Assembly (NCBI GenBank): GCA_030066045.1
Contig: JASJCJ010000244.1
Location: forward strand, 1 to 11,916
From: Calothrix sp. MO_167.B12
GTDB taxonomy: Bacteria > Cyanobacteriota > Cyanobacteriia > Cyanobacteriales > Nostocaceae
Direction of reading: 5' to 3'
DNA length: 11,916 nt
The position numbers and the translations under genes are program-made. Position 1 is the stretch's first letter; each line of letters opens with the position of its first letter. Shown here in pieces: positions 1-11,916 of the stretch. The notes under the pieces were generated by a model, which was not told the origin of the DNA, did no database searches, and saw nothing but the letters and a program-made list of their open reading frames with translations.

Positions 1-270
1 TACACATCTCAAGTTTGTCCTCAATGCAATGCCCACACTGGAAAAAAACAGTTAAAAGACAGGATTCATTTTTGTCAGTCATGCGGCTACACAACACATC
101 GAGATGTAGCAGCAGCACAAGTGATTCGCAATCGAGGGGTCAACGCGCTGGGACGCAGCGTGGAGCAAATTGCCTGTGGAGACGTTCTGACGGGGACTGG
201 TGACAGTCTAGTTAAGAGTCTAAGAAGCAGGAAAAAGGATGCACAGGTACGGATTTATCCTGCCTGGTAA
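1..270 (+). CDS. tnpB: 3' fragment of an IS200/IS605-family TnpB (OrfB) RNA-guided nuclease: C-terminal RuvC-III/zinc-finger region; gene continues upstream of the window
   Basis: Frame-1 translation YTSQVCPQCNAHTGKKQLKDRIHFCQSCGYTTHRDVAAAQVIRNRG... shows the CxxC...CxxC zinc finger and the HxD-x-AA RuvC-III motif typical of TnpB C-termini. Stop TAA at 268-270. The ORF is open to position 1. Confidence 0.75.
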   Translation, partial: YTSQVCPQCNAHTGKKQLKDRIHFCQSCGYTTHRDVAAAQVIRNRGVNALGRSVEQIACGDVLTGTGDSLVKSLRSRKKDAQVRIYPAW

Positions 271-420
271 TATCCTTTGAGAATCCCTGCGGATTTATCC
301 CAGGGAGTACGTCAATAATCAATGACTGTACATTAACCGGAATATTGCAGGTATCTTTTGTAGTCCCATGATGAGATAGTTTAAATTATGTATAGCTGCA
401 TACATCCATATAGCCTTTAA
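1..420 (+). mobile_element. Right end of an IS200/IS605-family element (tnpB 3' end plus subterminal structured region, candidate omega-RNA scaffold)
   Basis: TnpB C-terminus followed by an 11-nt direct repeat cggatttatcc (250-260 and 290-300) and a palindrome tatgtatagctgcatacat (~388-406). Subterminal hairpins downstream of tnpB are characteristic of IS605 right ends. Confidence 0.5.
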
Positions 421-1524
421 TTGATTGCACAAAAGAGATATTTGATTGTTATGAAATCTGTTACATCGATCTTTCCTGCACCAAAATCTCACTCTAATGG
501 TTCAAAACTAGATTTGATTAAACAGAGTATTGCTAATAAAGCAATGCCAATTTTATTGGTTTTATTATTACTAACTACTACAGCTTGTGGTGGTCAGAAT
601 TCTAAAATTAATAAATTAGAATCTGAGAAAAATGTAACTGAATTAGTATCTTTACTACAAAAGCAAGATTCTCTATCGCCACAGGCTGCTGAAGCACTGG
701 GTAATATTGGAGATAAGCAAGCTGTACAACCATTAATTACAGCTCTCGGTAATGAGGATAAAGCTATTCGTGAAAATGCGACTACAGCTTTAGGAAAAAT
801 TAAAGATACCCGTGCAGTCAAACCATTACTTACAACTTTAAAAGACAAAGTACCTAAAGTTAGAAATGCAGCCCAAACAGCATTAGCAGAAATTGCTAAA
901 ACTGATTCCAAGGTACTACAATCTTTAATGCCAGGATTGAAACAAATGAATCTTCCTTTGAGGGGAGTATTTACCAAAATTGGTACTCCGGCTGTGAATC
1001 CATTAATCAATGCACTCAAAGATAGTAATCCTGTGATGCGTTTAAATGCTGCTGCTATCTTAGGAAATATTGGCGATCGTAAAGCAATTGAACCCCTAAA
1101 ACAGAATTTAACTGATTGGTATTCCAACAAGTTTGTAGGACAAGCTTTAACAAAATTAAATTGGGAACCACAATCAGACGAGGATAAAATTCATTTCTTA
1201 GTTGCTCAGAAAAAAGGTGAGGAATTAAGACAAGATTGGGACATAACCAAAAAAGTTTTACTCCAAGATATTCAGTCAAAAAACTATCGCCAAATTCAAA
1301 ATGGTCTCTATGCATTTATTAATATTGGCGACAAAGATATTGTCAATGAACTAGTGAAAATTCTCGATACCAAAGGAAATAAAACTATGGCATTGGCTTA
1401 TCTAAATAGCCGTGAAGAGAACTTAGAAAATGCAGCGAGAAAATGGGCAAAACAACGTGGTTTTAGAATTGTAAAAGCGAAGAAAAACCAAACTGTACAA
1501 CCAGTAAAATGGGGTTCTTGGTAA
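421..1524 (+). CDS. HEAT-repeat protein (PBS lyase HEAT-like repeats), probably secreted or lipoprotein. ATG starts at 451 or 544 are more likely than the TTG at 421
   Basis: Repeated AxxALGxIGDxxAVxPLIxALxD modules (AAEALGNIGDKQAVQPLITALGNED, ATTALGKIKDTRAVKPLLTTLKD, AAAILGNIGDRKAIEPL). Hydrophobic MPILLVLLLLTTTACGG segment consistent with a signal peptide and lipobox-like Cys. Confidence 0.8.
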   Translation: MIAQKRYLIVMKSVTSIFPAPKSHSNGSKLDLIKQSIANKAMPILLVLLLLTTTACGGQNSKINKLESEKNVTELVSLLQKQDSLSPQAAEALGNIGDKQAVQPLITALGNEDKAIRENATTALGKIKDTRAVKPLLTTLKDKVPKVRNAAQTALAEIAKTDSKVLQSLMPGLKQMNLPLRGVFTKIGTPAVNPLINALKDSNPVMRLNAAAILGNIGDRKAIEPLKQNLTDWYSNKFVGQALTKLNWEPQSDEDKIHFLVAQKKGEELRQDWDITKKVLLQDIQSKNYRQIQNGLYAFINIGDKDIVNELVKILDTKGNKTMALAYLNSREENLENAARKWAKQRGFRIVKAKKNQTVQPVKWGSW

Positions 1525-1574
1525 ACTGAATACAAGTAAACATATTATTGTGAGTTATAGCTATAGCCAGCCAA

Positions 1575-1643
1575 GTTAGGACGTTTTTCAGTTGACAGTT
1601 GACAGTTGACAGTCCTTGAGTCGAATAATACTGTCCTAACCAA
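1575..1643. repeat. Small inverted-repeat-flanked element (gttaggac ... gtcctaac) enclosing a tandem heptamer (gttgaca)x3
   Basis: 8-bp perfect terminal inverted repeat at 1575-1582 and 1636-1643. Three overlapping TTGACA heptamer units at 1592-1612. Confidence 0.4.
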
Positions 1644-1734
1644 TATGTCCATTGCTATACATTACCATCCCCCCTTGGGAGCATCACCACAAATATAGTG
1701 TTTTTTGCTTGAGTCAGTTCAGATACACAATCAA

Positions 1735-1975
1735 ACCTCATCCCAGCTAAAGCCACCCCTCTCCTTAATAAAGCCACTATGTACACACAAACTATCGAAT
1801 TTCCAATAGTAAGAAAGCAAACCTCACCCTGACAAAAGCATACATCCCTCTCCTTAATAAGGAGAGGGAAAGATTTTTGCATCGCAAAAAGCGAGGGTGA
1901 GGTAATAATTTCATCGATTGGAGAGATGTGTACAACACGGTAGCCTTAATAAGGAGAGAGATTGAGGGTGAGGTC
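1735..1975. repeat. Cluster of nested palindromic short repeats (cyanobacterial dispersed-repeat / MITE-like)
   Basis: Motif (c)cctctccttaataa at 1756-1771, 1846-1860 and partially 1944-1954. The copy at 1846-1868 forms a perfect 10-bp stem (ccctctcctt/aaggagaggg) with a 3-nt loop. Nested hairpin tttttgcatcgcaaaaa (1874-1890). Outer inverted repeat cctcaccctg (1822-1831) / gagggtgagg (1893-1902), plus a third gagggtgagg at 1964-1973. Confidence 0.5.
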
Positions 1976-2167
1976 TTATCTTAGATTTAATTACGCCACC
2001 TACTTACCCGTAATAAATGTGAAATTAGTCTGAAATAAATTATTAGACTAATTAATCAAAAAATGTTTGGTGTGGATAAGTCAAATTATCCATTAAAATA
2101 CTTAATTTTTAGTTTTGTTTATTCTACTAAATTGCTAAAATAAAATTAGAGAATTGGTGGTAAAATC

Positions 2168-2752
2168 ATGTTGAATACAAACATAAGTTCTCTAACTAAA
2201 AAAAATTGGATCATCAAATTGGCTTTTTCCCTAGGAATTGCCGGTATCAGTCTCCTGATGAGTTTTCCTGTCTTAGCCAAATACTATCCACGCTACGCTC
2301 TTTTTCAACCCAGTGCCTATACAAGATATCCCTATCGGAGTTCTGAGAGTAATATTGCAAATACCCTTGTTGAAGATAGTAAATTTAGCAATTTTGTTTA
2401 TGAATTGAAAACAGTAGGTCTTCTCAAAGAACTCCAAAAGAAGGGTAATTTCACAGTTTTTGCTCCAACTAATAATGCTTTTAATGCTTTACCTGAAGAT
2501 GTATTTCAACGATATAGCCAAACAGAAAAACGCATCCGAGTGCTAAAGTATCATTTAGTTGCTGGAGAAATTACTCCTAAACAGGTAGATAGCGGCTCAA
2601 TCACAACCTTTGAAGGTAATAAGGTGAAAATAATTGTGAATGACGATAGTTCTGTAAAGATAAATGATGCTAACGGCAAACATCCTTCTACCCTCACGAA
2701 AAATGGTGTGATTATTGAAATTAACAAGGTGCTTCTTTACCCTGGGTTCTAA
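2168..2752 (+). CDS. Fasciclin (FAS1) domain protein with an N-terminal signal/anchor
   Basis: NFTVFAPTNNAFNALPEDV ... LKYHLVAGEI ... TTFEGNKVKI ... NGVIIEINKVLL matches the conserved FAS1 H1/H2 motifs (TVFAPTNxAF...LP; NGVIHxIDxVLLP). N-terminal hydrophobic stretch IIKLAFSLGIAGISLLMSFPVLA. Confidence 0.85.
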   Translation: MLNTNISSLTKKNWIIKLAFSLGIAGISLLMSFPVLAKYYPRYALFQPSAYTRYPYRSSESNIANTLVEDSKFSNFVYELKTVGLLKELQKKGNFTVFAPTNNAFNALPEDVFQRYSQTEKRIRVLKYHLVAGEITPKQVDSGSITTFEGNKVKIIVNDDSSVKINDANGKHPSTLTKNGVIIEINKVLLYPGF

Positions 2753-2928
2753 TCTTGATGTCTATTTTCAAAACCAATTTGACCGGAAGCATCCCCAATG
2801 TTTAAATTTGTAGTGCGGGCCCCAATGTCAAAGGGAGCATTAAACTAGCATCCAAAAGCCAATCACAACAGCCAGACAGCGTAATTGAGCAGGAGATACC
2901 CCAGACGCAGCCCAATTTCTCAGAAGGG

Positions 2929-3114
2929 ATGGACGGAATAATTAGGAAAGCGGCAGAAATCAAAGCACAGGGCTTGGCGATGCCAGATTTGGTAACACTG
3001 CAATTGGCAGGGCAGATGACCTTTGATGATTTACCAGATGACTTAAAAGAGAAAGTTACCGCAGTAAAGGAAGCAGCCAGTACAAAGATGATTGTCCAAC
3101 TTGGGAGGGGGTGA
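2929..3114 (+). CDS. Small hypothetical protein (61 aa) in a locally GC-richer island. Coding status is uncertain
   Basis: ORF MDGIIRKAAEIKAQGLAMPDLVTLQLAGQMTFDDLPDDLKEKVTAVKEAAS... has helical, non-repetitive composition. The frame is open from 2806 with no earlier ATG. The overlapping minus-strand ORF (2802-3140) looks like low-complexity junk. Confidence 0.25.
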   Translation: MDGIIRKAAEIKAQGLAMPDLVTLQLAGQMTFDDLPDDLKEKVTAVKEAASTKMIVQLGRG

Positions 3115-3367
3115 AGAGCACTCAAGATTCTGCCAAACAACAGAAACTAGGGGTTTGGGGTGGAAATCATCAGGAACCTTGGGCTTATAGAAAGGAGAAG
3201 AGGAGTAAGTGATGAAAGCTTTTGTGTACTCTTAGGAGCGAAGTGATCGAAAATTTGCGAGCTACTGAATGTCAATCAAAAAAATACATTGCTACACTGG
3301 AGGGTATAGTTCCGTAATTTTTACTATGACTTTATCGCAATTCAGTGTATAAATTGTATTAAAAAAC

Positions 3368-3570
3368 ATGAGTTTATCTGGTCAGCAGCGTAAAAGACTA
3401 CAAGATTTACAAGACAACATTGCCAAAGACGAAAAATTGCTCAAGGATTTTGAGGATGCATTGCGCTACGAGAAAGACCCTCGTGTCATAGCAGGATATC
3501 GCCGGGAGATTGAGCGACAGAGAGAGTCAATCACTCGCTACGAATCCGAAATGCGAGAACTACAACAAAA
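3368..3570 (+). other. Copy 1 of the shared N-terminal coiled-coil module (domain-level annotation)
   Basis: 3423-3531 is ~95% identical at nucleotide level to 8090-8198. Confidence 0.7.
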
Positions 3571-4255
3571 ATTGACAAGGGAACCATCTACTCAAATGCG
3601 AATGCAGGAGTTGGATGACAATACTAAACCTCTGTATGTTCTCTCAATACCCGTTACGAATCATAAAGAAGAGGAAAATCAAGATACAAAAATTAACTAT
3701 CCAATTGATAGCAAAGACAAGACACAACACTCGTCAAATCCTACAGATACTGAAGTAGAAACATATATCGAAAGAGGTATTGACTATACTCAACTACAAG
3801 AGTATATATCATCAGGTAAATGGAAGAAAGCTGACCAGGAAACAACTAGAGTTATGCTTGAAGTAGCTAACAGGCAAGAAGAAGGTTGGCTACGAAGTAA
3901 GGATATTGAACAGTTATCCTGCTCAGAACTCTGCAGAATAGACCAACTCTGGGTTAAATACAGCAACGGTCGGTTTGGTTTTAGTGTGCAAAGGCATATC
4001 TGGCTTAGCCTTGGTGGTCAACCAGGTAAATTCAATTTCACTGTCTTCTGTAAGTTTGGCAATCGCGTAGGTTGGCGAGTTAACAATGACTGGTTAGAAC
4101 AATACGATCAATTCACCTTTGCCTCTGATGCTCCAAAGGGACATCTCCCATCTTTGAGATTACCAGGTTCGGAGAAGGAAGCTAATTGGTGGGATTTGTG
4201 GCAGAAAAGCTTCAGAGGCTTGTTGCTTCGCATGGAAGATTGCTCATTAAGTTAA
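3368..4255 (+). CDS. Two-domain protein: N-terminal ~60-aa coiled-coil module (shared with the 8048 and 8738 genes), S/T/D-rich linker, and a C-terminal GUN4 (tetrapyrrole-binding) domain
   Basis: C-terminal region WKKADQETTRVMLEVA...SCSELCRIDQLWVKYSNGRFGFSVQRHIWLSLGG...VGWRVNNDW...FASDAPKGHLPSL matches the GUN4 core signature (W..AD..T...L..........PC.DL..ID.LW...S.G.FGFSVQ..IW...GG...W.....W...L.F...AP.GHLP). N-terminal KDEKLLKDFEDALRYEKDPRVIAGYRREIERQRESI is repeated in neighbouring genes. Confidence 0.85.
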   Translation: MSLSGQQRKRLQDLQDNIAKDEKLLKDFEDALRYEKDPRVIAGYRREIERQRESITRYESEMRELQQKLTREPSTQMRMQELDDNTKPLYVLSIPVTNHKEEENQDTKINYPIDSKDKTQHSSNPTDTEVETYIERGIDYTQLQEYISSGKWKKADQETTRVMLEVANRQEEGWLRSKDIEQLSCSELCRIDQLWVKYSNGRFGFSVQRHIWLSLGGQPGKFNFTVFCKFGNRVGWRVNNDWLEQYDQFTFASDAPKGHLPSLRLPGSEKEANWWDLWQKSFRGLLLRMEDCSLS

Positions 4256-4580
4256 GTTTCAATCTCAGTAATAAATAAGCTAATTAAATATAAGCATAGT
4301 CATTATATACATATAACTGATATGTTTCAGGTGCATCTATGGCAAGTTTTACAAGTAAGTTCCGAGGATAGGGATCTGGCGGCAACAAAGCATAAAAACG
4401 TTGAAGTCACCACATAGATAGGATTTCCGCCTTAGATCAATTCGGGTGTTCGGGGAAGTGAAGTTTCAATAAGTATCTTAGGTTCACAAAAAATTGATAG
4501 AAAACACGGAATATTGTGGTTGACATTGGTAGATATAAGTAAGTAGGGATGCAATAAAAATAAATACATAACTAAATCCG

Positions 4581-7529
4581 ATGAAATACTTAACAGTTTA
4601 CTTAAGATTAGCTATATTAATAGGTTGTGGGACAATAAATGCTGCTTTCGCTACAGGAAATACCAAAGCACAAACATTAGTGGCACCACAAGCTTCAACA
4701 GTAGTATTCAGCGAAATTTCAACTACAGCTAAATCACTAAAGATTAACCAACAGAGTCTATCTCATCAAAGTATACAACTAATGGCAATTCCCCAGAGTC
4801 AACCTTATATATTGGCTCAAGCAAGTAAAGGTGGAGAGAATGGAATCATTTGGATAGTTTTGTTAAGTGGAGTTGCGATCGCAGGAATCACGATTGTTTG
4901 CCAGAAAGGGGTGATTGTGATTGGTAAGAACGAAGTTGGCATTGTCTACAAAAAATTTGCCCCTTTTCGCGGTTCTCTCCCTGCCGATAAACTGATTGCC
5001 CTGAATGGAGAAGCGGGTTATCAAGCTGATACTCTTTCATCTGGTTTGCATCTCTGGTATTGGTCCTGGATGTACCAAATTCGTAAGGAACCAGCGATTG
5101 ACATTCCCCATGGGGAAATTGGTCTTGTCATTGCTAAAGATGGGCAACCAATCCCCCGCCAACGAATGTTAGGTAAAGTGATTGATGAGTGTAAAGATTT
5201 TCAAGATGGACATGGGTTTTTAAAGCACGGGGGTCAAAAAGGTAAGCAAATGGCTATCCTGACTACAGGAAGCTACCGTATTAACACTGAATTATTTACT
5301 GTGATTACTGCCGCCAATGCCACTAAGCATGGAATGAAGCCCGAGCAATTGAAAGTATATAAAGTGGAACCTAACAAAGTTGGTATTGTTACTACATATG
5401 ATGGTAAGCCAATTGAAGGTGAAATTGCTGGTTCAATTATTCATGATAATGAAAACTTCGTAAATGGAGAGAAGTTTATTAATGGGGGTGGGCAACAAGG
5501 CTTACAAGAAGAGTTGCTTCCTGTAGGTGAATGGAACTTAAATCCCTGGTTTGTGCAGGTTAAGCAAGTACCAGTGACAGAAATTCCCAATGGCTATGTT
5601 GGAATTATTAAATCCTATGTGGGAAAAACTCCTGAAAAGATTACTGGCACTGCTTCTTATCAAGGTGATTTGGTTGAAGATGGGTACAAAGGGATTTGGA
5701 AAACTCCCCTACGACCTGGCAAGTATGCTATTAACACAGAGGTGCAAAAAATAGAGCAAATACCTACTGATAATATTGTGCTGAAATGGTCAAACCAAAC
5801 CCAGTCTAAATACTATAGACATCTGCCTGCATTGAAGGTGCAAGATCAAGATGGATTTAAATTTGATGTAGAGGTAACACAGTTCATTCGCGTGAATCCC
5901 GAAGATGCCCCCAAGATGCTTTGCAGTGTAGGTTCCATAGATCAGCTAATAGACGAAGTTTTAAAGCCAACGGTCAGCCATTACTTTCTCACTGCTGCCC
6001 AATATTATGAGGCACTGGAATTTCAGAATAATCGTACTGACTTACAAGAAAGCGCGAAACAGGCTATCAAAACAGCCCTCAGTATTCACAATGTTCAAGC
6101 AATTGACACGTTGATTGGTGAAATTGACTTGCCCGATAAGTTAACTGAACATTTGATACAACGCAAGATTGCTCAGCAGGAAAAGGAAAAACTGAAAGTG
6201 GAAACATCATTAGAAGAGGAACGCCAAAATCATATTATAGCCAAGGAGACGGCACAAACAAGGGTTGAGGTAACTAAACATCAACTGAAGAGGGAGATTT
6301 TTGAACTAAATCGTCAAGAGAAACTAAACCAACAAAAAGCACAACAAGAGTTGAAGCGGCTGGCTCGTGAATCTGAAATAGAGGCGCGTCGTAGGCAAGC
6401 AGAAGTAGATGCACTATCTAAGCGACTGATAAGTCAAGTGGATATAGAAGACCTTCGCAAGAGAAAAGAGATAGAAGCAGACTTGAAGCAACTCCTGGGA
6501 GAAGCTGATGTAGATGTACTTGCCAAGACGCTGGAAGTCCTCGGTTCAGAAACATACACAGATATAGAAAAGAGCAAGATATTGGCAGAGGCACTGGGCA
6601 ATATCAAGGTGCCATTGGTACCGCAGACAATAAATTCTTTTGGCACTAGTCCTTATGGATCAATGGATTTCTTACAAGCAAATCCCCTTGGGTTGATGGT
6701 AACGCAGTTATTGCAGCAAGTAAGTCAGCAAAATCCCAACCAGCAACTTAGCAGTTCACCGTCAACACCTGTACTTCCTCAAACCCAGGTTAATTGTCCC
6801 AAGTGTGGATCTAAAAATCCAGAAACCAACAATTTCTGTAATAAATGTGGCACTGGACTAAATCAGCAGCTTTTCACTCACTCTCTATCTGAACCACGTT
6901 GCCCAGTTGTACTGCTTCTCGATACATCCAGTTCTATGTCGAGTGAATGTATCAATCAATTAATTGAAGGGATCGTTACTTTTCAACAGGAGTTAATGCA
7001 AGATACTGTAGCTTCCCGTAGTATTGAAGTAGCTATGATAACATTCGGTGACTCTGCCCAGGTAGTCCAAGACTTTACAATTGTTGAAAGTTTATCACCA
7101 CCTAAGCTTGTAGCAAATGGTATAAGTGCTATGGGTCAGGGGATTGAATTAGCGCTCAACGAGCTGGAGAGTCGCAAAGTTACTTACAAAAACAATGGCA
7201 TTCAGGAGCATCCAGCTTGGATGTTCTTGGTTGCAGGTAGTACTCCTAGCGACAATTGGAAAAATGCAGCAAGAAGTCTCAGAGAAGCTTTTGACAATAG
7301 CAAATTAATTTTCTTTACAGCAGTGGCTGTTCAAGGTGCAAACATGGATATTCTCAATCACATTGCTCCCAGCGATCCACCAGTAATGCTTAATGAATTG
7401 AAGTTTCAGGAATTGTTCCACTGGCTAGCTGATTCTCTAAAGAGAGTTTCCAGTAGCAAAGTAGGTAGCAGTACTAAGCTTCCACCCATCACACAGTGGG
7501 CAAGGATAGATGGGCTTTATCGGCAATAA
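4581..7529 (+). CDS. Large membrane protein: flotillin/YqiK-like SPFH (band 7) domain + long coiled coil + C4 zinc ribbon + C-terminal TerY-like von Willebrand A (vWA) domain. Alternative start ATG at 4782
   Basis: TM helix IIWIVLLSGVAIAGITIV, then an extended SPFH-like region (GIVYKKFAPF...GLHLWYW...IPHGEIGLVIAKDG... through ...SVGSIDQLIDEVLKPTVSHYFLTAAQYYEALEF...). E/R/Q/K-rich heptad coiled coil (LEEERQNHIIAKETAQTRVEV...EIEARRRQAEVDALSKR). CPKCGSKNPETNNFCNKCG zinc ribbon (6795-6851). vWA with MIDAS motif VVLLLDTSSSM...ITFGDSAQVV...GISAMGQGIELA...MFLVAGSTPSD (6900-~7390). Confidence 0.85.
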   Translation: MKYLTVYLRLAILIGCGTINAAFATGNTKAQTLVAPQASTVVFSEISTTAKSLKINQQSLSHQSIQLMAIPQSQPYILAQASKGGENGIIWIVLLSGVAIAGITIVCQKGVIVIGKNEVGIVYKKFAPFRGSLPADKLIALNGEAGYQADTLSSGLHLWYWSWMYQIRKEPAIDIPHGEIGLVIAKDGQPIPRQRMLGKVIDECKDFQDGHGFLKHGGQKGKQMAILTTGSYRINTELFTVITAANATKHGMKPEQLKVYKVEPNKVGIVTTYDGKPIEGEIAGSIIHDNENFVNGEKFINGGGQQGLQEELLPVGEWNLNPWFVQVKQVPVTEIPNGYVGIIKSYVGKTPEKITGTASYQGDLVEDGYKGIWKTPLRPGKYAINTEVQKIEQIPTDNIVLKWSNQTQSKYYRHLPALKVQDQDGFKFDVEVTQFIRVNPEDAPKMLCSVGSIDQLIDEVLKPTVSHYFLTAAQYYEALEFQNNRTDLQESAKQAIKTALSIHNVQAIDTLIGEIDLPDKLTEHLIQRKIAQQEKEKLKVETSLEEERQNHIIAKETAQTRVEVTKHQLKREIFELNRQEKLNQQKAQQELKRLARESEIEARRRQAEVDALSKRLISQVDIEDLRKRKEIEADLKQLLGEADVDVLAKTLEVLGSETYTDIEKSKILAEALGNIKVPLVPQTINSFGTSPYGSMDFLQANPLGLMVTQLLQQVSQQNPNQQLSSSPSTPVLPQTQVNCPKCGSKNPETNNFCNKCGTGLNQQLFTHSLSEPRCPVVLLLDTSSSMSSECINQLIEGIVTFQQELMQDTVASRSIEVAMITFGDSAQVVQDFTIVESLSPPKLVANGISAMGQGIELALNELESRKVTYKNNGIQEHPAWMFLVAGSTPSDNWKNAARSLREAFDNSKLIFFTAVAVQGANMDILNHIAPSDPPVMLNELKFQELFHWLADSLKRVSSSKVGSSTKLPPITQWARIDGLYRQ
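4875..4882. repeat. HIP1 octamer GCGATCGC (cyanobacterial highly iterated palindrome)
   Basis: Exact GCGATCGC. A second exact copy lies at 11788-11795, and a 7/8 copy at 1074-1081. Confidence 0.6.
6900..7390 (+). other. vWA domain (TerY-like, intact MIDAS DxSxS) within the 982-aa protein
   Basis: LLLDTSSSM ... FGDSAQ ... AxGxTxxG-like GISAMGQG ... VAGSTPSD spacing typical of vWA folds, immediately preceded by a zinc ribbon as in TerY-family vWA proteins. Confidence 0.7.
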
Positions 7530-7885
7530 AAGTCATGCCTGTGGAACATTCGTCTGAAAATCGATTTTCCCTATTTTACTCTTTAGCGGCTATTTGCCGC
7601 TCACGAAAATTTGGGTTTAGCGTACAAAAGCAAATCTATTGTGACGTGGGTGGCAAGCCAGGAAAATATAGCTGGGAAACGTTCGTTAGCTTTGCAGAGC
7701 AAGTGGAGTGGAAAGTAGGGGACAAATGGCTGGGCTATGATGAACTGTGTTGGGACTTACGAGGAGTACGTGGACACATACCCCTGTGGGTTACTGGAGG
7801 ACTAGCAGTTGATGCGGATACAAGGGTAGTAGTGTGTGGATGGGCAGTGGGGTTGTTCTCTCGCACAGAGACTTGTAGACTCTAA
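7496..7885 (+). CDS. GUN4-like domain protein, N-terminally truncated relative to a full GUN4 core (stand-alone fragment or remnant). Likely start is ATG 7535, 5 nt after the upstream stop. The GTG at 7496 overlaps the upstream gene
   Basis: RKFGFSVQKQIYCDVGGKPGKYSWETFVSFAEQVEWKVGDKWLGYDELCWDLRGVRGHIPLW aligns with the second half of the GUN4 domain of the 3368 gene (GRFGFSVQRHIWLSLGGQPGKFNF...VGWRVNNDWL...FASDAPKGHLPSL). Confidence 0.6.
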   Translation: MGKDRWALSAIKVMPVEHSSENRFSLFYSLAAICRSRKFGFSVQKQIYCDVGGKPGKYSWETFVSFAEQVEWKVGDKWLGYDELCWDLRGVRGHIPLWVTGGLAVDADTRVVVCGWAVGLFSRTETCRL

Positions 7886-8047
7886 CAGATAACCAATACA
7901 ACCTTTTATAAATATTTGATTTTTTACTAGAAAGTGTCCCCAGGAGGGGGAAGTAAATATCTGAGAAGCGTGATTTTTAAATATCCATAGTCAACTTCAC
8001 CAATCAATTTCACTTTTTCTCTGTCTAGGAAGTAGGAAGCCAGCTCC

Positions 8048-8734
8048 ATGACTAACCAAAGACTAAAAGATTTGGAAGATAGCATTACCAAAGACGAAAA
8101 ATTGCTCAAAGATTTTGAGGATGCATTGCGCTACGAGACAAACCCTCGTGTCATAGCAGGATATCGCCAGGAGATTGAGCGACAGAAAGAGTCAATCGCT
8201 AGTCACAAATCTGAGTATGTTGAACTGAAACAGGAATTAGCTGGGGAACCATCTGCTCAAATACAACTGCAAAAAGTAGAGAACCAATTGCAGCAGATGG
8301 ATAATAAAATAAACATTTTACTTAGTGGTCAGGTTGCTATTTATGCAGATATCAATGATATGCGTCTAGCCCTGTTAAAACGCTACGATGCCTCGGAACG
8401 AACCATAATTGGTGCTATTGCCCAGCAGTTAAATCAAAATCAATTAGTTTTGACACAACAGTTGTTGGATGCAGTAGAAAACAATCAAGTATCAGAACCA
8501 CAAATGCAACAGATGTTGGCAGTATTAGAAGATAAAATTCCTTCTCTACCTCCTAGTCAATTAGCCGCTATAGAGATTATAAAAGACCCCCAGTTTGATG
8601 CTAAACATAAACTAAAAGTAAGTCTACCAATTATACCAATGCTTGTAGAGTATGAAGGTGAATTAGAGTTAGGAAGTGGTTTTAATATCAAGTCTGCTTG
8701 GGAACATTTGGTAGCGAAGTTACGAAGGAAATAA
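8048..8734 (+). CDS. Protein with the shared N-terminal coiled-coil module fused to an uncharacterised all-helical Q/L-rich C-terminal domain
   Basis: N-terminus KDEKLLKDFEDALRYETNPRVIAGYRQEIERQKESI is near-identical to 3368-gene residues 20-55. The C-terminal ~150 aa have no motif I recognise. Confidence 0.75.
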   Translation: MTNQRLKDLEDSITKDEKLLKDFEDALRYETNPRVIAGYRQEIERQKESIASHKSEYVELKQELAGEPSAQIQLQKVENQLQQMDNKINILLSGQVAIYADINDMRLALLKRYDASERTIIGAIAQQLNQNQLVLTQQLLDAVENNQVSEPQMQQMLAVLEDKIPSLPPSQLAAIEIIKDPQFDAKHKLKVSLPIIPMLVEYEGELELGSGFNIKSAWEHLVAKLRRK

Positions 8735-8737
8735 GCT

Positions 8738-8998
8738 ATGTCTGATTGGCTTCAATACCTCCAACAACAAAAGAACAAAGATTTATCTCTATTAAAATAA
8801 TTAGAAGATAAGCTGCGCTATGAAGATAATCCACGTCAAAAACTGAGGTGGAAAGTTAAAATTGAAGAAATCAAGCAGAAAATAAAAAATGAACTCGACG
8901 ACGAGCAAACAGAACAAATCCGTGGCGGCATATTGCTAGGCTTTTTTAGGATAAAGAAAAAATCTGATAAGAAAGTACAGCACTTTGCAGATAAATGA
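8738..8998 (+). pseudogene. Third, diverged copy of the N-terminal module as a short stand-alone gene interrupted by an in-frame TAA (8798-8800). Either a pseudogene or a sequencing/readthrough case
   Basis: ATG at 8738 lies 3 nt after the upstream stop (translational coupling). MSDWLQYLQQQKNKDLSLLK-stop-LEDKLRYEDNPRQKLRWKVKIEEIKQKIKNEL... The module motif (LLK.[FL]ED.LRYE.[DN]PR) spans the stop codon in the same frame. Ends with TGA at 8996-8998. Confidence 0.5.
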
Positions 8999-9060
8999 GG
9001 TACAGACAAATTTTATAAAACTCTTGTGGTACGGGCATCTCTGCCCGTCTAAATGTACCT
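8997..9060. terminator. Nested hairpin between convergent genes (possible bidirectional terminator or small structured RNA)
   Basis: Outer inverted repeat gaggtaca (8997-9004) / tgtacctc (9053-9060). Inner GC-rich hairpin acgggca-tctc-tgcccgt (~9031-9048). No clean U-tract directly after the stem on either strand. Confidence 0.3.
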
Positions 9061-9121
9061 CATAAAGATGAAATATGCTGTAAATTAGTCGGCGTGGAAA
9101 AATCGTTACATTTGCACCTCC

Positions 9122-9343
9122 TCAACTCTCACCAATTCCATGACCCTGCTCAATTTGTGCAAGATACCCCAATTCCACTGGTGTAAAAGCCACTGGTCGC
9201 TCTAAAAGACTCAGTATTTCCACCTCAAACGGGTCTAGGTCACACTGCCTCAGTTTTGATATGCGATAAGCCGGAGGCTTGACGCTTCGCGTATCGCACA
9301 CAGTACGAGGGTGAGCAGTACTCACCCTAAAATTTACCCGCAT
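9122..9343 (-). CDS. Hypothetical 73-aa protein immediately downstream of (co-directional with) the CHAT gene. Coding status uncertain
   Basis: ORF MRVNFRVSTAHPRTVCDTRSVKPPAYRISKLRQCDLDPFEVEILSLLERPVAFTPVELGYLAQIEQGHGIGES. Its start is 13 nt from the CHAT gene stop. Locally GC-richer than the flanks. No recognisable motif. Confidence 0.3.
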   Translation of the reverse strand: MRVNFRVSTAHPRTVCDTRSVKPPAYRISKLRQCDLDPFEVEILSLLERPVAFTPVELGYLAQIEQGHGIGES

Positions 9344-9355
9344 ACAATCTTCTTT

Positions 9356-10400
9356 CTATTGCCAATTTCCCACCAACACATAGGGCGCCCAAAAGTGAGG
9401 GTGATTATACTTTTCATCTGTCAACAGAGTTAGCTGTGCTTGTTGCAATACTTGAGCTTTATTGTTCTGAGTGGTTTTAGCTTCACCTAACTGACGATAA
9501 AATTCACTCATGATTTTAGCAGTACTTTCATCTGCTACAGGCCAAAGTGTCGCTAAGGTGCTACGCGCTCCTGCTCGCACCGCTACCCCAGCTAATCCCA
9601 AAGTAGCTCTTTTGTCTCCACTAGCAGTCTCACAGGCACTGAGAACTAATAATTCAATGGCTCTGGGTTGATTCAGGGTTTTATCTCGCAGTAAATTATC
9701 CAATTGCTTGACATTAATACGTCTATCCCAGGAGAGTATAAAAGTATCCTCTGCTTTAGAACTAAACTTGGCATGGGTAGCTAGATGAACTATGGGAAAA
9801 CGAAAATCACTAATCTCTTGTTGTACAGTGTTAGTGGTAAATTTCTTATTTAGAAGTGGTTGACCAGATAATCCAATTTTCTGGATTTGTTCTAGTTCCG
9901 ATGGTACATTAGGTAATGGGTTAAAACCTTGATGTGCGGGTAAGTCTTTGCGAATTTCACTGAGTCCTGCTGTTAAAGCTTTGAAATTTATTGCTGTTAG
10001 TGGTTTTGGGTTTACCAACTGTAAACCAGGTGTCAAGGCAATGGCATACTTTTCTAATAGATACTGCTTGCCATCGTGCAGAACAGCCATAGGAATATTC
10101 CGCAAGTCTCCATCTAAAACAAAAGCTACAGTCTTGACTTTACTATTTGCCAACTGTTTTTCTACTGGTCTAATTAACCAATTATACAGCTTTTGGTATT
10201 TGGGCAAAAAATATTTCTCTCTACTTATAGGTTTTAAAAGAGAACCCTGTACTTCCCCTACAGTATTTTCCAACTCTGATTGAGAAATTTTAGTACTGTA
10301 AAGCTGGGGAGGTTGATTAGGTAAACTGAGCAGAATTTCTAACCTATCTTTCAAGATAATTGGATAAATAACTGCTGCGTTTTTATCAATTTGATCGATT
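9356..10400 (-). other. CHAT peptidase domain portion of the TPR-CHAT protein (domain-level annotation)
   Basis: His and Cys catalytic motifs as above. AVIYPIIL...VAFVLDGDLRNIPMAVL upstream is typical of CHAT domains. Confidence 0.7.
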
Positions 10401-11916
10401 TGTTGGGGTTTTGCGTCTACACAGGCTTCTCGGAAAAAGTTGTTGATTTCTGCTAATTGCAAAGATTCAATTACATTACGGGCTTGAGTTAGTAATTTAT
10501 GACTTTCTTTCTCTTTTCCTGCGGTTTTTAAGAAACGAGCATATTCTAAATCTAATTGAACCAACTGGCGATATATTGGTTCAACATTATCCCGGAAAGC
10601 AAACTGTACCTCTGGGTTGACTGCGACTAAATCACCTCGTAATGATTGTAGGGAATCATAGGCTTTGGTATAGGCAGCAATAGCATCAGGAATATCGTTT
10701 TGGGCTTTACGTATGCGTCCCAACTGCCAGAAAAACTGGTAGGCGATGTGTGGTGATTCCAAATTTGAAGCTAAACTCAAAGCCTGTTTAGTCAATTGTT
10801 CTGCTTGGGATAAATTCTGCCTGGAACTACTCAGTTCATAGAGTCTACCGCGAAATCCTAATGCATAAGCTTGTGCCGCTTTATCTTCAAAACTCCTAGC
10901 TTGTGCTAATGCTTGGACTAAAATACTGTCAATTTCGTTAAAACTTGGTAGTTGAGAATTACCAGTGAGATTAAAATTTTCGGTTTGAGCTAATTTGACC
11001 AAACTTTGGGCAAAGTTTATTTGTAGGTAAACTGTTGTGCGACTGGGAGGCAAACTATTGAATTGAGACTTGATATCTTGCCATAATTGTGATGCCTCTA
11101 AAGTTTTTTTCCGTTTTAGTAACAAGCTGAGTTGATTCAATTTTGCTTGTTGTCTGGTGGTTGGAGATGTAGACAGCTTAATTACATGACTGTAAGAATC
11201 CAAAGCAGTTTGTTGATAATTCTGCCTTTGACGACGAATGGTTTCGCTTTCAGCCAAGGCTTGGGCTGTGTTACCCAGGGCGAGATAAACAGCAGCCTCT
11301 TGTTGGGGATAATTCAATTTTTGAACTACTTTTAAACTAGTTTCCAAGACCATTTTGGACTGTTCTAATTGACCTACAGATTGCAGTATGTTACCCAAAC
11401 TTGTCAATCCTAATACTACAGTAATAGGGGGAGAACTAGTTTCAATTTGTTGCAGCTTTGTGGTTAATTCTTCTGAAGTTAACCTGCCTAACTCTTGACA
11501 ATTTTCTAATTGTAATTGTGTCTTTAAGGCTTCAAGTACAGTATTACAAGCACGGGGATAAAAACCCAAATCTTGCATTGCTTGTGCTTGATTAATTTTA
11601 CTTTGAGTAACCTGGGAAGAATTTTTAATTTGGCTATAGATTTTCGTAGATTCTTGCCATGTCTGTAAAGCATCTGCCGACTGTCCAATTTCCCGTTGCA
11701 AGTATCCCTGAATATCTAAAGAGTTAGCCAAAATTCTCAACTGTTCTTGCTTCTGGGGTTGGGTTTTGAGTATTTTTAAACTATCTGCGATCGCATTTTT
11801 TGCTGATTCCCACTTGCCTAGTTTTTGATAAGTTAGGGACAGATTACTCAATGCCATTGCTTGGTTTAAGCTATCCTGTTGGGCAGCATAAGCTGCCGCC
11901 GTATCTTTCCATACAA
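9356..11916 (-). CDS. TPR-repeat + C-terminal CHAT (caspase-like HetF-associated with TPRs) protease-domain protein. 5' end (N-terminus) lies beyond the window edge
   Basis: Minus-strand ORF stays open past 11857 to the window edge (…VWKDTAAAYAAQQDSLNQAMALSNLSLTYQKLGKWESAKNAIA). Multiple TPR-like helical repeats. CHAT core near the C-terminus with catalytic dyad context HLATHAKF (rc at ~9763-9790) and LVLSACETASG (rc at ~9609-9637), followed by LGLAGVAVRAGARSTLATLWPV. Confidence 0.85.
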   Translation of the reverse strand, partial: VWKDTAAAYAAQQDSLNQAMALSNLSLTYQKLGKWESAKNAIADSLKILKTQPQKQEQLRILANSLDIQGYLQREIGQSADALQTWQESTKIYSQIKNSSQVTQSKINQAQAMQDLGFYPRACNTVLEALKTQLQLENCQELGRLTSEELTTKLQQIETSSPPITVVLGLTSLGNILQSVGQLEQSKMVLETSLKVVQKLNYPQQEAAVYLALGNTAQALAESETIRRQRQNYQQTALDSYSHVIKLSTSPTTRQQAKLNQLSLLLKRKKTLEASQLWQDIKSQFNSLPPSRTTVYLQINFAQSLVKLAQTENFNLTGNSQLPSFNEIDSILVQALAQARSFEDKAAQAYALGFRGRLYELSSSRQNLSQAEQLTKQALSLASNLESPHIAYQFFWQLGRIRKAQNDIPDAIAAYTKAYDSLQSLRGDLVAVNPEVQFAFRDNVEPIYRQLVQLDLEYARFLKTAGKEKESHKLLTQARNVIESLQLAEINNFFREACVDAKPQQIDQIDKNAAVIYPIILKDRLEILLSLPNQPPQLYSTKISQSELENTVGEVQGSLLKPISREKYFLPKYQKLYNWLIRPVEKQLANSKVKTVAFVLDGDLRNIPMAVLHDGKQYLLEKYAIALTPGLQLVNPKPLTAINFKALTAGLSEIRKDLPAHQGFNPLPNVPSELEQIQKIGLSGQPLLNKKFTTNTVQQEISDFRFPIVHLATHAKFSSKAEDTFILSWDRRINVKQLDNLLRDKTLNQPRAIELLVLSACETASGDKRATLGLAGVAVRAGARSTLATLWPVADESTAKIMSEFYRQLGEAKTTQNNKAQVLQQAQLTLLTDEKYNHPHFWAPYVLVGNWQ
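11788..11795. repeat. HIP1 octamer GCGATCGC
   Basis: Exact GCGATCGC inside the TPR-CHAT gene. Confidence 0.6.

Follow-up and report, generated by a model that had tools for sequence, protein, structure and literature searches.

A cyanobacterial family of membrane-anchored SPFH-vWA proteins with vault-like domain order, encoded next to GUN4-domain genes in a possible conflict module

The window analyzed here is a stretch of 11,916 nucleotides (nt) from the metagenome-assembled genome (MAG) of Calothrix sp. MO_167.B12 (GenBank assembly GCA_030066045.1, contig JASJCJ010000244.1, positions 1 to 11,916), and its central feature is a forward-strand gene (4581..7529) that encodes, in an uninterrupted frame with an ATG start, a protein of 982 amino acids (aa) plus the stop codon. 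The product, which joins an SPFH (Band 7) region to a C-terminal vWA domain and is called the SPFH-vWA protein below, was found in a database homologue search to be identical to the deposited 'MAG: SPFH domain-containing protein [Calothrix sp. MO_167.B12]'. The same strand carries, upstream, a gene for a 295-aa partner protein with a GUN4-paralogue domain (3368..4255; Pfam GUN4, E 1e-44). A sequence-only reading of the window had described the 982-aa protein as an unusual fusion of a membrane-anchored flotillin/YqiK-like SPFH domain, a coiled coil, a zinc ribbon and a TerY-type vWA with an intact metal ion-dependent adhesion site (MIDAS). These parts do exist where that reading placed them, as shown by Pfam matches to Band_7, Zn_Ribbon_1 and VWA and by a long helix in an AlphaFold2 (AF2) model, but several of their attributes had to be revised. 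The SPFH-vWA protein is a member of a cyanobacterial family, undescribed so far, of scaffold proteins that are anchored in the membrane and have a vault-like build, and no description of a module of SPFH, vWA and GUN4 was found in the open-access literature.

The protein starts with a signal-peptide-like hydrophobic segment (residues 1-24, MKYLTVYLRLAILIGCGTINAAFA; 4581..4652, forward strand) that is conserved in seven loci, followed by a conserved spacer of about 60 aa with a recurring QTL...TA.SL...L.HQ pattern and by a transmembrane (TM) helix (residues 88-109; 4842..4907, forward strand). The Kyte-Doolittle profile peaks at 2.6 at residues 88-90 and the AF2 model has a helix at 89-109, in agreement with the membrane anchor proposed earlier. 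In the alignment, the succession of signal-like segment, spacer and TM helix is shared by the seven loci, which come from at least four genera, and the homologues (from Calothrix-like, Stigonema, Symploca and Iningainema loci) have their MK start at one common column; the start at 4581 is therefore favored over the alternative at 4782. A lipoprotein reading of LIGC (residues 13-16) was ruled out because the Cys varies among the homologues, so that the N-terminus contains no lipobox. The spacer is predicted to be extracytoplasmic, and we infer that everything after residue 109 is cytoplasmic, a placement that suits the zinc ribbon as well as partner proteins without a signal. A TM segment is altogether absent from one subgroup of the family, which comes from Moorena and metagenome contigs (e.g., P0037 and P0080). 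In the AF2 model, a monomer built on 103 homologues, the predicted local distance difference test score (pLDDT) exceeds 90 for residues 110-530 and 770-975; residues 1-91 and 674-768, the second of these stretches with the zinc ribbon in it, come out as unstructured or uncertain.

Band_7 (PF01145) matches residues 334-545 with an E-value of 1e-22 and 81.5 bits against a cut-off of 23.6. Residues 110-405 consist of four tandem beta-rich units of 70-85 residues with the pattern P.G.VGIV..DG.P....G...F..GG..G.Q..L..G.Y.IN, and pairwise comparison relates the second unit to the third (E 8e-12) and the fourth (E 2e-5) and the first to the third (E 2e-4). The first three units (residues 111-335, about 70-85 aa each; 4911..5585, forward strand) resemble the repeats found in major vault protein (MVP). 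The fourth is the beginning of the Band_7 match and, together with the alpha/beta domain that follows it, makes up the SPFH/Band 7 core (residues 336-516; 5586..6128, forward strand). Of the SPFH fold previously assigned to residues ~100-520, the portion 336-516 is thus upheld, whereas residues 110-335 repeat the N-terminal beta unit of SPFH three additional times; homologues have up to about 11 copies of the unit and lengths of 1,400-1,800 residues. The coiled coil of the earlier description corresponds to a long helical stalk (residues 519-673; 6135..6599, forward strand), modeled by AF2 as helices 519-613 and 625-673, and this region is collinear in Foldseek alignments with both the cap-helix of MVP and the coiled coil of SPFH proteins. 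The protein accordingly combines the SPFH alpha/beta fold with a long coiled-coil helix after it, as is characteristic of the SPFH superfamily, and shows, at the same time, the collinear order of repeats, shoulder and cap-helix found in MVP.

A Foldseek search returned MVP for all eight best matches (E 7e-13 to 2e-10, about 700 aligned columns covering the region from 110 to ~800). What we claim, on grounds given below, is a resemblance to MVP and not membership, and we describe the protein as an 'SPFH protein with vault-like domain order'. The designation as SPFH stands; the flotillin/YqiK-like qualifier does not. BLASTP against Escherichia coli YqiK gave a best E-value of 0.23, confined to low-complexity coiled coil, and the YqiK-like label was dropped. 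Flotillin (9l3g, 9bq2) was likewise rejected as the nearest structural relative because it ranks 26th or lower in the Foldseek search, below MVP, prohibitin, erlin and HflK/C. A sequence search of the PDB produced a single marginal match, to prohibitin (E 0.05).

The SPFH-vWA protein shares with MVP, the protein of the eukaryotic vault shell, the order of beta repeats, shoulder and cap-helix. Unlike MVP, it carries a signal-like segment, a TM helix and a C-terminal vWA, has three to four repeats instead of nine and shows no sequence-level match. True bacterial homologues of MVP, with more than 50 % identity to the eukaryotic protein, have been reported, in a preprint (10.1101/872010), to form a protein set of their own. 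With the cage-forming SPFH proteins prohibitin, erlin and HflK/C, the protein has in common the SPFH alpha/beta domain followed by a long helix. It departs from these and from stomatin, flotillin and QmcA in the amplification of the N-terminal beta unit, in the vWA appended after a long linker and, compared with the cage-forming SPFH proteins in general, in having a GUN4-domain partner in place of an NfeD or FtsH-type one.

Between the stalk and the vWA, within a low-confidence linker (residues 674-768), lies a zinc ribbon (CPKC...CNKC, residues 739-760; 6795..6860, forward strand) that scores 27.3 bits against the Zn_Ribbon_1 cut-off of 25. The ribbon is real but is not a feature of the family: of the 26 fusion homologues examined, one has the CxxC...CxxC motif, namely the Calothrix query itself, and even P0002, which is 70 % identical to the query, lacks it. 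A few SPFH paralogues without a vWA carry a zinc ribbon after the helix, and among the NCBIfam models the only match, at 17 bits, was between the query zinc ribbon and a PP2C model's N-terminus. The architecture taken to be tripartite is really bipartite with an optional insert. The pairing of zinc ribbon and vWA had, furthermore, been regarded as a hallmark of TerY; this is not established because in the TerY-P triads (vWA, PP2C phosphatase and protein kinase) the zinc ribbon sits on the kinase and not on the vWA (PMC11090510).

The vWA domain itself (residues 773-975; 6897..7505, forward strand) is matched by Pfam VWA at residues 776-931 (E 1e-7), and its attribution to the TerY type is well founded. 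Over 176 residues, the segment 770-982 shares 41 % identity with E. coli YegL (E 3e-45); the gene for YegL adjoins pphC (PP2C) and lies near yegI (kinase). In tblastn searches, the domain is about 30 % identical (E 4e-12) to vWA genes on more than 2,000 enterobacterial plasmids, and in an IncHI2 example the matching genes are found among terW, TerD-family, TerY-C, PP2C and kinase genes of a ter cluster. Stand-alone cyanobacterial YegL-like proteins of 217-227 residues reach 59 % identity to the query domain, and the motifs PRxPxxLLLDxSxSM and PTD..W are shared between the fused domain and YegL/TerY. The MIDAS, by contrast, is not intact as had been stated. Alignment with YegL, two TerY proteins and one vWA from a Calothrix plasmid shows that D781-x-S783-x-S785 is kept (nt 6921-6935), but Ser849 stands at the MIDAS Thr position and the Asp of the beta-4 'TDG' motif is missing, with AGS at 886-888. 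This Asp is absent from all 29 SPFH-fused vWA domains (which have IGS, TGS, AGS, IGG, TAS and similar), whereas TDG is retained in 112 of 120 stand-alone relatives, a comparison set taken from a homologue search with the vWA only, which listed stand-alone YegL-like proteins and no fusions. Judged from these alignments, loss of the MIDAS Asp defines the fused family.

Among the 120 best database matches, at least 29 clusters contain both Band_7 and VWA. They originate from filamentous and colonial cyanobacteria, namely Calothrix, Microcystis, Iningainema, Crocosphaera, Okeania, Moorena and Symploca, and some members are already named 'YegL / YqiK' by JGI. A profile search of genome contigs with the vWA alignment, based on one narrow pattern, yielded six loci only, and a metagenome scan was added. 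The observation that SPFH and a TerY-type vWA are united in one membrane-anchored polypeptide therefore holds, but the architecture is recurrent and not a one-off. With a metagenome-assembled source and a truncated GUN4 open reading frame (ORF) just downstream that testifies to local rearrangement, one might suspect an artefact of assembly or annotation, or a fusion in decay that does not function as a single polypeptide. This explanation is hardly credible given the collinear, unbroken architecture in at least 29 clusters, the high AF2 confidence in all folded parts and the many residue positions that are invariant across the family. In 14 independent loci from different genera and studies (numbered with the prefix L below, apart from the window), the frame is continuous across the SPFH/vWA junction, so that the splitting of the gene in relatives that would betray an artefact was not seen at this junction. 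In an Okeania homologue (L017), the gene consists of two overlapping frames (7566-8039 and 8000-11323), split near the N-terminal repeats and not at the SPFH/vWA junction, which may reflect a frameshift or sequencing error.

A GUN4-domain gene lies directly upstream of the fusion gene, on the same strand, in 13 of the 14 loci (the window, L001, L003, L005, L008, L013-L017 and L023-L025), in most cases with a gap of about 20 nt. The exception is L051, with an IS605 tnpB at the GUN4 position and a caspase-domain gene adjoining. The same metagenome scan also supplied a control: about 76 loci with SPFH only, not one of which has GUN4 within 6 kb. The earlier suggestion that the protein recruits the products of neighboring genes thus pointed in the right direction. 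In the partner proteins, GUN4 is the constant C-terminal part and the N-terminus is variable: an effector-associated domain (EAD) of type EAD1 in L001, L013 and L023 (the 87 %-identical closest relative), a Peptidase_C14 caspase in L003, L024 and L025, PIN plus caspase in L015, TIR plus CHAT in L014, and an EAD9-like helical domain in the window, L005 and L008. In the window protein, the EAD9-like adaptor occupies approximately residues 5-86 (nt 3380-3625, forward strand) and the GUN4-paralogue domain residues 135-263 (nt 3770-4156, forward strand). The partner GUN4 domains have a C-terminal tail of their own, GHLPSL..PG...W..W..SF..L.R.E[TD]C. A scan of positions 3200-9400 for promoters and terminators found sites no more numerous than in shuffled sequence.

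One alternative is a role in pigment or tetrapyrrole metabolism, with the SPFH assembly as a housekeeping microdomain scaffold that organizes thylakoid or plasma-membrane domains and the GUN4 paralogue delivering or sensing porphyrins. The arrangement would then echo Mg-chelatase, an enzyme that GUN4 activates and whose ChlD subunit likewise has a vWA domain at its end. We consider such a role in tetrapyrrole metabolism quite improbable: nearby photosynthesis genes are on the other strand and not conserved across the loci, the N-termini of the partners are TIR, caspase, CHAT, PIN and EAD domains, and the patchy distribution, the location of some loci in mobile elements and the highly variable repeat number are atypical of housekeeping genes. 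Moreover, the partner GUN4 domains are paralogues that lack LxNxLR, the bilin-binding motif of true GUN4 (PMC10156173).

Linkage of GUN4 to SPFH also occurs without the vWA, in L021 and L022. In Brasilonema, a Pkinase-GUN4 gene precedes an SPFH gene with a zinc ribbon (SPFH-ZnR), the kinase-GUN4 gene of L021 being directly upstream of the SPFH-ZnR paralogue, and in Nostoc, GUN4 precedes an SPFH paralogue beside a set of NB-ARC, EAD8 and trypsin genes, with NB-ARC adjoining the paralogue in L022. Conversely, the TerY-P triads provide a link between GUN4 and the vWA without SPFH. Complete triads, consisting of a vWA with TDG, PP2C and Pkinase, are encoded just downstream of the fusion gene in L012 (6451-9697), L013 (12442-15784), L014 (12480-15906) and L025 (11949-15329), and the kinase in all four ends in a GUN4 domain; elsewhere, the triad kinase has an OB fold or a zinc ribbon at its C-terminus (PMC11090510). 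GUN4 is also matched by the C-terminal end of the PADLOC model for the defence kinase PD-T4-6, and TerY-P modules in which the kinase has an OB fold are reported to be stand-alone antiphage systems, as cited in PMC11090510. Stand-alone vWA genes adjoin the fusion gene in L015 and L017. The SPFH-vWA gene and the triad are separated by two conserved genes (L013, 10663-12452; L014, 10854-12466; L012, 4630-6437), one for a coiled-coil protein of about 340 aa and the other for a protein of about 250 aa with a weak OmpA-like match.

These associations could mean that the SPFH-vWA protein is a membrane-tethered arm of TerY-P phospho-signaling, with the vWA as substrate or partner of a kinase-GUN4 and a PP2C encoded elsewhere, the SPFH part only localizing the switch and the upstream GUN4 protein competing with or mimicking the GUN4 of the kinase. 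The proximity of the fused vWA to the stand-alone YegL-like vWA of cyanobacterial triads, the triads and stand-alone vWA genes next to the fusions and the kinase-GUN4 gene in front of the SPFH-ZnR paralogue of L021 all speak for this possibility. Nevertheless, we regard it as unlikely, given that neither PP2C nor a Ser/Thr kinase is encoded in the window or the rest of its 20-kb contig, nor in L001, L003, L005 or L008, and that the partner N-termini are death and immunity effectors and not signaling enzymes. In addition, the fused vWA domains systematically lack the TDG Asp that the triad vWA keeps, which indicates functional divergence. Thus, the fused domain resembles the TerY-P triads in its motifs and in the triads adjoining the gene in several loci, and differs from YegL/TerY in its attachment to a scaffold, in the Asp lost from 29 of 29 members and in a contig without kinase or phosphatase.

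Downstream of the SPFH-vWA gene, the window encodes a conserved 228-aa protein (8048..8734, forward strand) that has an EAD9-like adaptor at its N-terminus and, in its C-terminal part, a conserved domain without a Pfam model, and that is likely to be the third component of the locus. It is 69 % identical to the product of the gene directly upstream of GUN4 and SPFH-vWA in L005 and L008 (Moorena producens). The family of 228-231-aa proteins to which it belongs comprises about 305 clusters across cyanobacteria, with 55-86 % identity and no Pfam model; members are located at 6462-7157 in L005 and at ~7001-8690 in L018, L019, L103 and L104, and have the C-terminal pattern ...LPI.P.LVEYEGE.ELGSGFNIKSAW..LV.KLRRK. 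Homology links the first ~60-85 residues of the 228-aa protein to the N-terminus of the window GUN4 protein (phmmer E 1e-27), so that two components of the locus share one adaptor, the pattern that underlies effector-associated domain logic (PMC7159879). The N-terminus of the 228-aa protein aligns with a Dolichospermum protein that is above the Pfam EAD9 threshold (hhalign, 95 % probability). When 45 family members and three partners were scanned with Pfam EAD9, no family member matched and only the Dolichospermum (L019) partner did; since the link runs through hhalign to one Pfam-positive protein, the domain is labeled 'EAD9-like' only.

Genes of the 228-aa family head operons, and in every case examined the next gene begins with the same EAD9-like domain. 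This next gene encodes TIR in Calothrix PCC 7507, EAD9-TPR followed by a vWA protein in Dolichospermum, two FGE-sulfatase/FGS proteins in a sister Calothrix MAG, an 861-residue protein in a further case, and the GUN4 partner in L005 and L008. In the window the order is rearranged, to EAD9-like-GUN4, SPFH-vWA, truncated GUN4 and the 228-aa gene. The truncated gene is a 116-aa ORF (7535..7885, forward strand) that begins 6 nt past the SPFH-vWA stop codon and contains only the C-terminal half of GUN4 (positions 70-125 of the 141 in the Pfam profile; also found by phmmer) and not the tail that is conserved in the partners; a rearrangement or duplication has probably left it behind as a remnant.

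The remaining genes of the window include, on the reverse strand, one for a TPR-CHAT (caspase-like) protein (9356..11857; 928 aa in the full contig; Pfam CHAT, E 2.5e-57), which is a possible effector acting in trans; elsewhere, caspase or CHAT is fused directly to the GUN4 partner. It is followed, past the end of the window, by a gene for a 1,692-aa TPS/PPC-domain protein, and the pair is located at 8044-16065 in L002. Upstream of the module, a HEAT/PBS-lyase-like repeat protein (421-1524) and a fasciclin-domain protein (2168-2752) are encoded on the forward strand, with no conserved link in the other loci. Some fusion loci have mobile-element settings, with a relaxase in L001 and Tn7-like genes, parAB and traG in L005. 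In the latter (1-6038 and 11269-17085), GUN4 and SPFH-vWA are located between Tn7-like tnsABC, parAB and a traG-like gene. Downstream of the module in both Moorena producens loci, L005 and L008, there is a DO-GTPase-like operon, which in L008 (10720-18354) includes a protein with a faint vWA_2 match.

Taking these observations together, we propose, with moderate confidence, that the SPFH-vWA protein is an oligomeric membrane scaffold on which GUN4-tagged adaptors and effectors dock, within a conflict or immunity system related to the TerY-P triads. It would be a single-pass membrane protein with its large C-terminal part facing the cytoplasm, comprising, in this order, four MVP-like beta units, the SPFH alpha/beta domain, the long helix, a flexible linker of about 95 residues and a vWA that would be derived from the stand-alone YegL/TerY vWA of the triads. 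By analogy with solved SPFH assemblies and with MVP, it may oligomerize into a membrane ring or cage, with numerous vWA domains on flexible tethers at its apex. The constant GUN4 domain of the partners would then dock on the scaffold through the vWA, the SPFH part or both, and the variable N-terminus would bring in adaptors (EAD1, EAD9-like) or effectors (caspase, PIN, TIR-CHAT); in the window, the EAD adaptor could recruit further proteins such as the 228-aa protein. Together, the genes would constitute a membrane-based conflict module with a role in immunity or programmed cell death of multicellular cyanobacteria. A more specific and only tentative version holds that a vault-like SPFH cage uses the Asp-less vWA to capture the GUN4 domain of caspase, TIR, PIN or EAD proteins and so restrains the effectors at the membrane until an envelope or infection signal sets them free.

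Among the closest counterparts of the proposed module are the EAD-coupled conflict systems (Kaur, Burroughs, Iyer and Aravind 2020, PMC7159879; Kaur et al. 2021, PMC8195603), with which it shares EAD1/EAD9-type adaptors, caspase/CHAT, TIR, PIN, GUN4, vWA and Band7-like scaffolds as well as enrichment in filamentous cyanobacteria. The parts listed for cyanobacterial and actinobacterial conflict systems include GUN4, as a module confined to cyanobacteria, and Band7-like domains, in the role of scaffolds (PMC7159879). In the actinobacterial vWA-MoxR-VMAP ternary systems described there (Kaur 2020), a Band7-like domain is located C-terminal to the vWA and accompanied by cNMP cyclase and HAD (PMC7159879). 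Unlike in those systems, SPFH is N-terminal here, the vWA is of the YegL type, and the window encodes no MoxR, VMAP or STAND NTPase. The dyad of GUN4 and SPFH-vWA was not found in the main text of Kaur et al. or in one supplementary file of Kaur 2020. SPFH scaffolds, TerY-type vWA domains and EAD-coupled systems are known; the open-access papers searched contain no description of a protein in which a vault-like SPFH region precedes a YegL-type vWA and which has GUN4 as its partner.

Several observations weigh against the proposal. The scan of the window and its 20-kb contig for a regulatory NTPase core (STAND, MoxR, GTPase) was negative, and with no NTPase, kinase or phosphatase near the gene on this contig, the window version lacks the regulated core of the described conflict systems. 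Its partner protein consists of the adaptor and GUN4 and has no enzyme domain, and because the GUN4 gene ends 325 nt upstream of the SPFH-vWA gene, their co-transcription in the window is not assured. Nor can the TPR-CHAT gene be tied to the module, because in the sister Calothrix MAG (L103) the CHAT and TPS set, together with DUF928 and CHASE2, adjoins the 228-aa homologue in the opposite relative orientation and with no SPFH-vWA gene. The linkage of GUN4 with SPFH alone and with the vWA alone means that it may contact either part of the scaffold, and the MIDAS without its canonical Asp makes metal-dependent binding of a ligand uncertain. As to the vault likeness, the Foldseek matches to MVP have low TM-scores (0.11-0.21), an effect of the elongated chains, and there is no match to Pfam Vault or MVP_shoulder with either the whole protein (E<=0.01) or residues 1-340 (E<=10), for which reasons we speak of resemblance only. 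Finally, PADLOC gave no match for the SPFH-vWA protein, and no experimental report of a role in defence or cell death was found in the open-access literature.

If the proposal is correct, SPFH cages would serve not only to organize chaperones and proteases but also as docking platforms for immune or cell-death effectors. The TerY/YegL vWA, widespread but mechanistically obscure, would gain a concrete candidate partner in the GUN4-paralogue domain, which holds the sensor position on the kinase of the cyanobacterial TerY-P triads. A bacterial membrane-bound protein with vault-like domain order could, in addition, inform the function of vault-type shells. Should the tentative scheme of effectors restrained by a cage prove true, the module would represent a class of prokaryotic immune or cell-death systems that has not been described before and would provide a structural analogue, in prokaryotes, of the vault shell.

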